Positions 6,919 to 9,913 of a stretch of DNA of 27,580 nucleotides are shown here, piece by piece. The notes under the pieces are model-generated. The model did not search any database. It was not told the origin of the DNA and saw only the letters and a list, made by a program, of their open reading frames with translations. Position 1 is the first letter of the stretch, and each line of letters opens with the position of its first letter. The stretch lies in IMG/VR virus record IMGVR_UViG_2671180903_000020. One strand, written 5' to 3'. Source of the stretch: a virus (lineage: Duplodnaviria > Heunggongvirae > Uroviricota > Caudoviricetes). The position numbers and the translations under genes were made by a program.

Positions 6919-7887
6919 TTAGTAGGTTATTTTTGTTGCGAATACTTCGCCTTTTACGATGGCTGTTATGATATTTTTAGCAACATCTTCTGATGCACCA
7001 ACCTTGATAAGGTCAGCAAGTATTTTGTTATTTACTTCTTTCCGGTGAGCTTTATCCTTTGCTCTACGCTCTTCTTCTTCCTTGATTCTTTTTTCTTCTG
7101 CTATTCTGGCTTGCTCTTTTGCTTCAGCCTCGCGCCGGATTCGTTCAGCCTCCTCCTGTGCTTTTCGGCGTTCTGCTTCAATTGCCGCCTGCTTTTCTCT
7201 TTCAGCTCGTTCTGCTGCCTCTTTTGCTTCGCGCTGTGCTCGTTGCTCGGCTTCAATGCGTTCACGCTCTGCACGTTCCGCTGCGGCCTTAGCTTCTGCT
7301 TCTCGCCTTGCTGCTGCTTCAATTTCGGCTTTTGCCTTTGCTTCGGCTTCTGCTCTGGCTTTCTCTTCAGCTTCTCTTTTTAAGCGTTCTTCATGCTCTC
7401 GCTTTTCCTGCTCCGCTTTGAGTCTTGCCTCTTCTCTTTTGCGGTCAAATTCGCGATCCATCAAAATCGCTATTTCATGGTCAGACTCAATTTGCTTTGC
7501 GAGAGCTTCAGCTGCTGCCTTAGCTTCTTCTTCGGCTTTAATCCGCGCCTGTTCTTCCTCATAATCAGTAAGAGGCTGGCGCGCCTTGGCTTTCAGCTCA
7601 TCAAGGCGATCACGCACTGTCTTGCGGTTGGCATCAATTAGCTTTGGAATTTCCTTCAGTTCAGCAACAAGGTCTTTGCCAAGACCATCGAGATATGTTT
7701 TCGTCTGCGCAACTTTATACGCCAGAGAAGCGATCTCCTTTCTGCCCTTTGCCGTTGTGATATCAGGCACAAAGGACATAACTTCACGTTCAACCTTTTG
7801 AAGGATTTCTTCAATCTGGTCGGCAGACTGAAATACAGTCATTGCATTTGCTTTTTCAATAACAACTAAATCTGTTACTTCACTCAT
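6919..7887 (-). CDS. Coiled-coil protein (322 aa) with a long low-complexity E/A/K/R-rich central region, in the position lambda gives to ea10
   Basis: ORF in track; central ~150 aa of EAKAKAE/AERAERE-type heptad repeats; produces the spurious Cys/Phe/Ser-rich antisense ORFs at 7045..7801. Confidence 0.7.
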   Translation of the reverse strand: MSEVTDLVVIEKANAMTVFQSADQIEEILQKVEREVMSFVPDITTAKGRKEIASLAYKVAQTKTYLDGLGKDLVAELKEIPKLIDANRKTVRDRLDELKAKARQPLTDYEEEQARIKAEEEAKAAAEALAKQIESDHEIAILMDREFDRKREEARLKAEQEKREHEERLKREAEEKARAEAEAKAKAEIEAAARREAEAKAAAERAERERIEAEQRAQREAKEAAERAEREKQAAIEAERRKAQEEAERIRREAEAKEQARIAEEKRIKEEEERRAKDKAHRKEVNNKILADLIKVGASEDVAKNIITAIVKGEVFATKITY

Positions 7888-7921: not shown

Positions 7922-8290
7922 TCAGGCGGCTTTGATAGTCATATCATCTGAATCAAATATTCCTGATGTATCGATATCGGTAATTCTTATTCCTTCGCTA
8001 CCATCCATTGGAGGCCATCCTTCCTGACCATTTCCATCATTCCAGTCGAACTCACACACAACACCATATGCATTTAAGTCGCTTGAAATTGCTATAAGCA
8101 GAGCATGTTGCGCCAGCATGATTAATACAGCATTTAATACAGAGCCGTGTTTATTGAGTCGGTATTCAGAGTCTGACCAGAAATTATTAATCTGGTGAAG
8201 TTTTTCCTCTGTCATTACGTCATGGTCGATTTCAATTTCTATTGATGCTTTCCAGTCGTAATCAATGATGTATTTTTTGATGTTTGACAT
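7922..8290 (-). CDS. Strongly acidic hypothetical protein (122 aa)
   Basis: ORF in track; by my count 20+ Asp/Glu against fewer than 10 Lys/Arg; ends ...GIFDSDDMTIKAA; lies between ral and the coiled-coil gene. Confidence 0.55.
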   Translation of the reverse strand: MSNIKKYIIDYDWKASIEIEIDHDVMTEEKLHQINNFWSDSEYRLNKHGSVLNAVLIMLAQHALLIAISSDLNAYGVVCEFDWNDGNGQEGWPPMDGSEGIRITDIDTSGIFDSDDMTIKAA

Positions 8291-8310: not shown

Positions 8311-8336
8311 AAAAAATCGCCCTCACACTGGAGGGC
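8311..8336 (-). terminator. Rho-independent terminator-like hairpin (GCCCTC-cagtgt-GAGGGC then U6 on minus strand)
   Basis: Read directly; located downstream of ral in the leftward transcription direction. Confidence 0.45.
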
Positions 8337-8472
8337 AAAGAAGATTTCCAATAATCAGAACAAATCGGCTCCTGTTTAGTTACGAGCGACATTGCTCCGT
8401 GTATTCACTCGTTGGAATGAATACACGGTGCAGTGTTTATTCTGTTATTTATGCCAAAAATAAAGGCCACTA

Positions 8473-8674
8473 TCAGGCAGCTTTGTTGTTCTGTTAACCA
8501 AGTTCTCTGGCAATCATTGCCGTCGTTCGTATTGCCCATTTATCGACATATTTCCCATCTTCCATTACAGGAAACATTTCTTCAGGCTTAACCATGCATT
8601 CCGATTGCAGCTTGCATCCATTGCATCGCTTGAATTGTCCACACCATTGATTTTTATCAATAGTCGTAGTCATA
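8473..8674 (-). pseudogene. ral: ral (restriction alleviation) carrying an apparent +1 frameshift and an in-frame TAA
   Basis: From ATG 8674: MTTTIDKNQWCG then the frame breaks at a CCC run (8639-8641); the +1 frame continues QFKRCNGCKLQSECMVKPEEMFPVMEDGKYVDKWAIRTTAMIARELG, then TAA (8494-8496), then QNNKAA and TGA at 8473. Total 202 nt versus the 201 nt I recall for lambda ral. Confidence 0.55.
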
Positions 8675-8744
8675 CGGATAGTCCTGGTATTGTTCCATCA
8701 CATCCTGAGGATGCTCTTCGAACTCTTCAAATTCTTCTTCCATA
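8658..8744 (-). CDS. 28-codon highly acidic ORF overlapping the ral start by 17 nt (lambda orf28 position)
   Basis: Hand translation MEEEFEEFEEHPQDVMEQYQDYPYDYDY*; AAGGTGA Shine-Dalgarno 4 nt upstream; geometry matches what I recall of lambda orf28. Confidence 0.4.
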
Positions 8745-8870
8745 TATCACCTTAAATAGTGGATTGCGGTAGTAAAGATTGTGCCTGTCTTTTAACCACA
8801 TCAGGCTCGGTGGTTCTCGTGTACCCCTACAGCGAGAAATCGGATAAACTATTACAACCCCTACAGTTTG

Positions 8871-9422
8871 ATGAGTATAGAAATGGATCCACTCGTTATT
8901 CTCGGACGAGTGTTCAGTAATGAACCTCTGGAGAGAACCATGTATATGATCGTTATCTGGGTTGGACTTCTGCTTTTAAGCCCAGATAACTGGCCTGAAT
9001 ATGTTAATGAGAGAATCGGTATTCCTCATGTGTGGCATGTTTTCGTCTTTGCTCTTGCATTTTCGCTAGCAATTAATGTGCATCGATTATCAGCTATTGC
9101 CAGCGCCAGATATAAGCGATTTAAGCTAAGAAAACGCATTAAGATGCAAAACGATAAAGTGCGATCAGTAATTCAAAACCTTACAGAAGAGCAATCTATG
9201 GTTTTGTGCGCAGCCCTTAATGAAGGCAGGAAGTATGTGGTTACATCAAAACAATTCCCATACATTAGTGAGTTGATTGAGCTTGGTGTGTTGAACAAAA
9301 CTTTTTCCCGATGGAACGGGAAGCATATATTATTCCCTATTGAGGATATTTACTGGACTGAATTAGTTGCCAGCTATGATCCATATAATATTGAGATAAA
9401 GCCAAGGCCAATATCTAAGTAA
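8871..9422 (+). CDS. sieB: Superinfection exclusion protein B (membrane protein); ATG 8871 (track starts at TTG 8868)
   Basis: Hydrophobic N-terminal half (MYMIVIWVGLLLLSPDNWPEYVNERIGIPHVWHVFVFALAFSLAINVH...) resembling lambda SieB; convergent with N, stop codons abut. Confidence 0.75.
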   Translation: MSIEMDPLVILGRVFSNEPLERTMYMIVIWVGLLLLSPDNWPEYVNERIGIPHVWHVFVFALAFSLAINVHRLSAIASARYKRFKLRKRIKMQNDKVRSVIQNLTEEQSMVLCAALNEGRKYVVTSKQFPYISELIELGVLNKTFSRWNGKHILFPIEDIYWTELVASYDPYNIEIKPRPISK

Positions 9423-9746
9423 CTAGGTAAGAGGAATCGATTTTCCCTTAATTTTCTGGCGTCCACTGCATGTTATGCCGCGTTCGCCAGGCTTGCTGTA
9501 CCATGTGCGCTGATTCTTGCGCTCAATACGTTGCAGGTTGCTTTCAATCTGTTTGTGGTATTCAGCCAGCACTGTAAGGTCTATCGGATTTAGTGCGCTT
9601 TCTACTCGTGATTTCGGTTTGCGATTCAGCGAGAGAATAGGGCGGTTAACTGGTTTTGCGCTTACCCCAACCAACAGGGGATTTGCTGCTTTCCATTGAG
9701 CCTGTTTCTCTGCGCGACGTTCGCGGCGGCGTGTTTGTGCATCCAT
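9423..9746 (-). CDS. N: Antitermination protein N (107 aa), internal start of the tracked 136-aa ORF
   Basis: MDAQTRRRERRAEKQAQWKAANPLLVGVSAKPVNRPILSLNRKPKSRVESALNPIDLTVLAEYHKQIESNLQRIERKNQRTWYSKPGERGITCSGRQKIKGKSIPL matches lambda N including the Arg-rich RNA-binding N-terminus. Confidence 0.9.
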   Translation of the reverse strand: MDAQTRRRERRAEKQAQWKAANPLLVGVSAKPVNRPILSLNRKPKSRVESALNPIDLTVLAEYHKQIESNLQRIERKNQRTWYSKPGERGITCSGRQKIKGKSIPLT

Positions 9747-9803
9747 CTGGATTCTCCTGTCAGTTAGCTTTGGTGGTGTGTGGCTGTTGTAGTCCTGAAC
9801 GAA

Positions 9804-9820
9804 CCCCCCCCCCCCCCCCC
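9804..9820. repeat. Homopolymer tract C17 (G17 on the N mRNA strand) in the N 5' leader
   Basis: Counted directly: gaac + 17 C + gcgattggcac; about 58 nt upstream of the N start codon. Confidence 0.9.
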
Positions 9821-9913
9821 GCGATTGGCACATTGGCAGCTAATCCGGAATCGCACTTCCGGCCAATGCTTCGTTTCGTATCACACACCCCAAAGCCTTC
9901 TGCTTTGAATGCT

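Follow-up and report, generated by a model that had tools for sequence, protein, structure and literature searches.

Analysis of a 27,580-nucleotide stretch of virus DNA (Caudoviricetes; IMG/VR record IMGVR_UViG_2671180903_000020), hereafter the window, indicated that it carries a lambda-type ral gene whose reading frame is intact and which carries one nonsense substitution, K60*, that is probably inherited. The 59-aa Ral specified by this allele is probably still active, or nearly so, and the allele itself is probably an ordinary inherited polymorphism. The lost residues, KQNNKAA, lie wholly outside the conserved core, whose last position is L58, and all the invariant positions and the four cysteines are kept. 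The substitution would have arisen once, and recombination would have carried the allele into many lambdoid phages and prophages. As in the case of full-length Ral, the short Ral would alleviate restriction by driving EcoKI and similar type IA restriction-modification enzymes to methylate DNA that is unmodified. The sequence itself is established, as are the frequency of the allele, the distribution of conservation along the protein, and the fact that viable phages carry the allele, and from these we infer that the 59-aa Ral most likely retains its alleviation and modification activity.

The elements of the window that are needed to follow the analysis are these:

8494 to 8673, minus strand: ral as it stands, 59 codons plus TAA, with the product MTTTIDKNQWCGQFKRCNGCKLQSECMVKPEEMFPVMEDGKYVDKWAIRTTAMIARELG (from the list of open reading frames and its translation)
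8494 to 8496, minus strand: ochre TAA at codon 60, in place of the lambda AAA (Lys) (from column 265 of the alignment to lambda and from the translation)
8473 to 8493, minus strand: former codons 61 to 66 (QNNKAA) and the ancestral TGA, now untranslated 3' sequence, identical to lambda
8657 to 8743, minus strand: orf28, 28 aa, MEEEFEEFEEHPQDVMEQYQDYPYDYDY, with a 17-nt overlap with the start of ral in another frame, identical to lambda
9423 to 9833, minus strand: N, of the lambda type
8868 to 9422, plus strand: sieB
7922 to 8290, minus strand: ea10/DUF2528

The start codon of ral was located at 8673-8671 on the minus strand, and from there 59 Ral codons run without interruption until the TAA at 8496-8494. 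Past this stop, the same frame encodes QNNKAA and then reaches a TGA at 8475-8473. The first-pass annotation had reported both the in-frame TAA in place of Lys and the sequence behind it, and these were indeed seen, the former in the translation as well as in the alignment to lambda. The Ral sequence that it had given for lambda was also right, with Lys at codon 60 of lambda and agreement with the 66-aa translation, and so was the length of 201 nt, which agrees with the lambda annotation (34087-34287). The truncated Ral is then 59 aa long versus 66, and its missing part is the C-terminal KQNNKAA. No second copy of ral was found within the window, where the gene is single-copy.

The same annotation had proposed a single-base insertion in a C-run, and this part did not survive re-reading. 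It had placed the ATG at 8674, one base away from the actual start, and had counted a total span of 202 nt, when the interval 8473-8673 contains 201 nt. The supposed CCC run at 8639-8641 reads CCA on the plus strand, and the coding strand there is TGT GGA CAA. Translation from 8674 gives YDYDY followed by two stops, which belongs to the end of the orf28 frame that overlaps ral (orf28 is annotated at 34271-34357 in lambda). Thus, when the start is taken at 8674, the orf28 frame is read, and this generated the unrelated codons and the stop that had been described. Of the two lesions claimed, the TAA is real and the frameshift was an off-by-one reading error. A fusion of orf28 to ral was observed in public assemblies, where one cluster of relatives (P0016, 89 aa, 76 member sequences) consists of MEEEFEEFEEHQQDVMEQYQTIR plus the full Ral, and this implies a small change that brings orf28 in frame with ral.

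Comparison with lambda was in agreement with these results. The 361-nt stretch around ral showed a 99.4% match to lambda and many lambdoid phages, and its alignment to NC_001416 contained 0 gaps and two substitutions, at window positions 8496 and 8427. An alignment to lambda ral was the check that the first-pass annotation itself had put forward, and its outcome was divided: it is gapless and contains no extra base, and lambda does differ at 8496, where the TAA is real. No frameshift or indel was therefore present relative to this functional reference. Position 8427 is non-coding, with C here and T in lambda, and the sole coding difference from lambda ral is AAA to TAA at codon 60, whose source is a single A to T change of the coding strand at window position 8496. 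This change also makes the palindrome GTTAAC at 8491-8496, an HpaI/HincII site that is missing from lambda ral and could be a simple diagnostic for the TAA allele.

Next, we analyzed how widespread the allele is. The window Ral is identical (59/59 aa) to WP_000213971.1, 'antirestriction Ral family protein' of E. coli/Shigella prophages, which is annotated as intact. The unrelated E. coli strains PM4-5 and ECE170 have this 180-nt gene with an intact annotation, in prophages whose neighbouring genes differ. By exact-sequence look-up, at least 1000 contigs were found to encode the 59-aa protein, under a name of the form 'MULTISPECIES ... [Enterobacteriaceae]', and the protein shares a 90% cluster with lambda Ral. 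In a position index of an assembly collection, it was found in 5191 blocks. Among the ten of these blocks that were listed, the repressors were of 210, 217, 231, and 237-238 aa, the N proteins were of the lambda N36 type and of the PF25694 type, and the integrases were of at least two kinds, with differing prophage-adjacent genes. Among 5426 complete E. coli genomes, 67 carried the TAA allele (their sources included humans, pigs, cattle, poultry, and water) and 768 carried the AAA version found in lambda, which means that TAA represents about 8% of the ral carriers. These searches were based on a 55-mer centred on the variant base, with which megablast cannot seed on the other allele.

In IMG/VR, an exact 23-mer detected 28 contigs with TAA and at least 120 with AAA; the Ral relatives in this collection total 381, and the best 80 of the 381 were all full-length, and thus unusable for allele frequency. 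The allele was also found in isolated phages: SfI and phi458 contain exactly the 59-aa allele, with the SfI copy annotated as "restriction alleviation ral", and mEp332 has the TAA allele plus M53I. K60* is a natural variant already known from RefSeq and from published phage genomes.

The position of the variant within its neighbourhood was informative about its origin. At nucleotide 192 of ral, 14 nt downstream of the variant, A was present in 28/28 of the IMG/VR TAA copies, and the 118 AAA copies of the same collection had A in 75 cases and G in 43. Recurrent mutation was considered as the origin of TAA and was discarded in view of this complete linkage to 192A. The TAA copies from IMG/VR fell in seven upstream and six downstream flanking-sequence groups, and upstream of the stop they showed 21G, 78T, K7T, F34L, and other variants that are also found on AAA alleles. 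This pattern is suggestive of a single origin of the TAA allele and of its later spread by recombination among many lambdoid phages and prophages, with the reservation that the samples are not independent.

The name ral given in the first-pass annotation was correct, as the product matched both Pfam PF11058 (Ral), with 148.3 bits for a cut-off of 25 and over profile positions 1-59 of 66, and PHROG 1055, 'restriction alleviation ral', with E = 2.2e-45. In NCBIfam, no model matching Ral was found. The sequence relatives of Ral formed 81 clusters, all from Enterobacterales, and conservation was read from family alignments of 31 and 33 representatives. In these, C11, C17, C20, C26, and positions up to R56, E57, and L58 were invariant or nearly so, and the window protein keeps the invariant M27, P30, D44, W46, R49-T51, M53, I54, R56, and L58 along with the four cysteines. 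The last invariant column of the family is L58, and none is conserved beyond it; the tails that follow vary from about 3 to 9 residues, for example KQNNKAA, NQKKQQDA, KLKAA, and QQKNEHS. With 59 aa, the window protein is shorter than the usual family length of 64-67 aa (profile 1-66), and the premature stop, at codon 60 of 66 and past L58, removes no conserved sequence.

The spacing of the cysteines, C-x5-C-x2-C-x5-C (11, 17, 20, 26), was invariant or nearly so across the family, and this suggests that they may form a small metal-binding knuckle. Variants with C26Y were observed on both the 66-aa and 59-aa backgrounds (clusters P0020 and P0007). Clusters of 56 aa ending in ...MIAR (P0026 and P0058) were considered as shorter functional forms and were discarded, since some carry a partial label and may be contig-end fragments.

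The AlphaFold2 prediction from the 33-sequence alignment was a weak model, with a mean pLDDT of 61.7 and a pTM of 0.37. This low-confidence model contained a C-terminal helix spanning residues 45-65, of lower confidence at its very end, with residues 60-65 inside it, and in these terms K60* would shorten the predicted terminal helix rather than remove an obviously floppy tail. The search of PDB sequences yielded no relative. In the literature, lambda Ral is described as an alleviator of restriction by type IA enzymes (EcoKI/EcoB) and an enhancer of their modification activity, under which they methylate unmodified DNA faster (PMC12707154), and a recombineering study reported that its effect was small compared with those of ArdA and Ocr (PMC9410887). 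The literature found on lambda Ral covered the mechanism, and nothing was found in it on the C-terminal tail or on truncated or shortened forms.

The context of ral in the window also matched the lambda map. The gene is in the N-antiterminated early leftward (pL) operon, with N and sieB on one side and ea10 on the other, and its place downstream of N and upstream of ea10/cIII is that of the Ral family. We would expect no effect of K60* on downstream genes, because the new stop is just 21 nt before the old one. Several other elements were observed in this region. Between ral and ea10, a very stable RNA hairpin was predicted at 8389-8436 on the minus strand (core stem 8397-8428; -27.1 kcal/mol, z = -6.9), with no T-run after the stem. 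The window-private C at 8427 turns a G.U pair of lambda into a G-C pair, and T was found at this position in all 13 other loci compared. In addition, two terminator-like sites were found versus 0.3 expected in shuffles, both on the minus strand: at 8466-8481, a weak 5-bp stem over the ancestral TGA of ral, followed by CTTTATTTTT, and at 8317-8338, immediately upstream of ea10, a stem of 8 bp with TTTTTTAT after it.

Between ea10 and gam, there is a 322-aa ORF (6919-7887, minus strand) with Glu/Ala/Lys/Arg repeats and a coiled-coil-like appearance; the lambda counterpart of this stretch contains only cIII and kil, and in the window a gap of about 380 nt is left to gam. This ORF had no match in Pfam or NCBIfam, and it matched PHROGs 1376, 21365, and 17211, all families of unknown function. 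Downstream of the Q-like region, the segment 17150-20389 (plus strand) contains a 252-aa ORF of PHROG 1521, another function-unknown family, and after it a 645-aa DUF1737/SASA esterase/DUF6645 protein, of a type labelled 'SASA family carbohydrate esterase' in E. coli prophages. The window as a whole was found in none of the complete E. coli genomes, the best match having 70% coverage and 96% identity.

Decay of the gene was assessed in the IMG/VR copies, as additional lesions would be expected in the carriers of an old null allele. Codons 1-59 were intact in 26/28 TAA copies, with one of the disrupted copies carrying G19* and the other having its 5' half replaced, and in 97/118 AAA copies, where the 21 disrupted ones included 17 rearranged or deleted, 3 with nonsense changes, and 1 with a lost start. 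The proportions of disrupted cores, 2/28 for TAA versus 21/118 for AAA, did not differ significantly in this small sample (Fisher p = 0.25). Synonymous and nonsynonymous core variant sites were in a ratio of 6:3 in the TAA copies and 15:10 in the AAA copies, a comparison of low power in which most sites are shared between the classes. The TAA copies thus appear to show no sign of faster decay, and the test is weak because they are few and because variants are shared through recombination. Behind the TAA, no tail variants were found in the 26 intact-core copies, and in the 97 intact-core AAA copies the tail had just two amino-acid-changing variants, A65V and a stop loss (TGA>TGG). The tail sequence is then mostly kept among close relatives, and it may not be constraint-free.

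It should be considered that genuine disruption of ral is frequent in prophages, and W10*, W46*, and G19* are among the nonsense alleles. A recurrent 103-nt deletion allele, which joins ...AATCAATGGTG to TGGGCAATACG with the frame shifted, is a true pseudogene; it was observed in many IMG/VR loci (among L122-L200) and represents most of the copies seen in full among the 17/118 rearranged or deleted AAA-type ones. In phage ECP1 (L244, 1051-1251), the 103-nt deletion is found together with the TAA and a second TAA at codon 61.

These broken copies bring forward the possibility that K60* is a null allele, i.e., that Ral is unstable or inactive without its seven final residues and alleviation is lost in all the carriers. 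We regard this as possible but rather unlikely. The first-pass annotation had proposed that, if the lesions were genuine, the restriction-alleviation function was lost, and this is the less likely reading of a stop that removes only seven residues past the last conserved position. A null allele could persist, given that a dispensable and often broken gene may be maintained by linkage to useful neighbouring genes or by hitch-hiking, and ral is non-essential and elsewhere often disrupted, by the 103-nt deletion and by W10*, W46*, and G19*. Moreover, residues 60-65 are within the C-terminal helix of the model, ECP1 joins the TAA to a second stop and the 103-nt deletion, and mEp332 adds M53I at an invariant position. 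However, the cut falls past the last conserved column, and natural homologues finish just two residues later. There is also no excess of secondary lesions in the TAA copies (2/28 versus 21/118 in the AAA copies), their nine core variant sites are synonymous in 6 cases and nonsynonymous in 3, and the allele is kept in plaque-forming phages.

A change of function, which we consider improbable, would give the lost residues another role: the Ala-Ala tail would be a regulatory or turnover signal of the ClpXP type, its loss would generate a Ral that lasts longer or acts more strongly, and selection would maintain the allele as a polymorphism. ClpX recognises C-terminal motifs, and Ala-Ala ends resemble a ClpXP-type tag. 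In line with this, about one-third of the family representatives end in -AA, more have AA in the last three residues, and the allele frequency is stable at about 7-8% in two independent collections. On the other hand, many homologues end in -HS, -TA, -AI, or -AM, and the motif is thus not general; the frequency of about 7-8% is equally consistent with neutrality. As for the proposals that the TAA or an extra base came from sequencing or assembly error, or that the frame is rescued by programmed frameshifting or readthrough, these are effectively excluded. There is neither an extra base nor a homopolymer run at 8639-8641, and the same T recurs across thousands of independent assemblies as well as finished phage genomes, as befits a widespread catalogued allele. 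A slippery homopolymer or heptamer with two overlapping frames was not found at the proposed shift site, where the frame is continuous through TGT GGA CAA, and the absence of anything to slip over leaves programmed slippage without a basis. No readthrough signal was seen either, and UAA terminates translation efficiently in E. coli.

The result matters little: a false frameshift alarm is corrected, and the stop is a common polymorphism of a small accessory phage gene. For annotation, it follows that a length of 59 aa does not by itself justify labelling a Ral gene as a pseudogene or a sequencing error. The natural truncation in viable phages such as SfI and mEp332 would moreover be a ready-made probe of the need for the C-terminal tail and for mapping the contact with the EcoKI methylase. 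Should the improbable change of function be true, K60* would be an alternative anti-restriction setting, held at about 8% among lambdoid phages.

Finally, the window gene was compared with known systems. Lar of the Rac prophage is likewise reported to alleviate EcoKI restriction and to enhance modification, according to the statement in PMC6158711 that cites King and Murray 1995, and it was absent from the 81 sequence relatives of Ral. Lambda Ral (RAL_LAMBD, NP_040622.1, 66 aa, PF11058) is one of the closest known systems: the 201-nt gene is identical except for one base, residues 1-59 are identical, and lambda has Lys60 where the window protein ends without KQNNKAA. The two genes also share their place in the pL operon, flanked by sieB/N and ea10, and the overlapping orf28. 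Shigella phage SfI gp42 (YP_009147488.1) has 59/59 identical residues and the same TAA, and it is annotated as intact. Relative to the WP_000213971.1 and SfI loci, two non-coding bases downstream of the gene (8427 and 8364) are private to the window, and the downstream neighbourhood is different, with the 322-aa ORF beyond ea10. The Ral homologues of Pantoea and Erwinia, which share about 66-71% identity with lambda Ral, are also of 59 aa and, like the window Ral, combine the conserved core with a very short tail. They end in ...RELAAM or ...RELAAK, three residues past L58 and two beyond the end of the window protein, and lack two residues near the N-terminus. Their shortness is ancestral to the lineage, whereas that of the window Ral came from a nonsense change.
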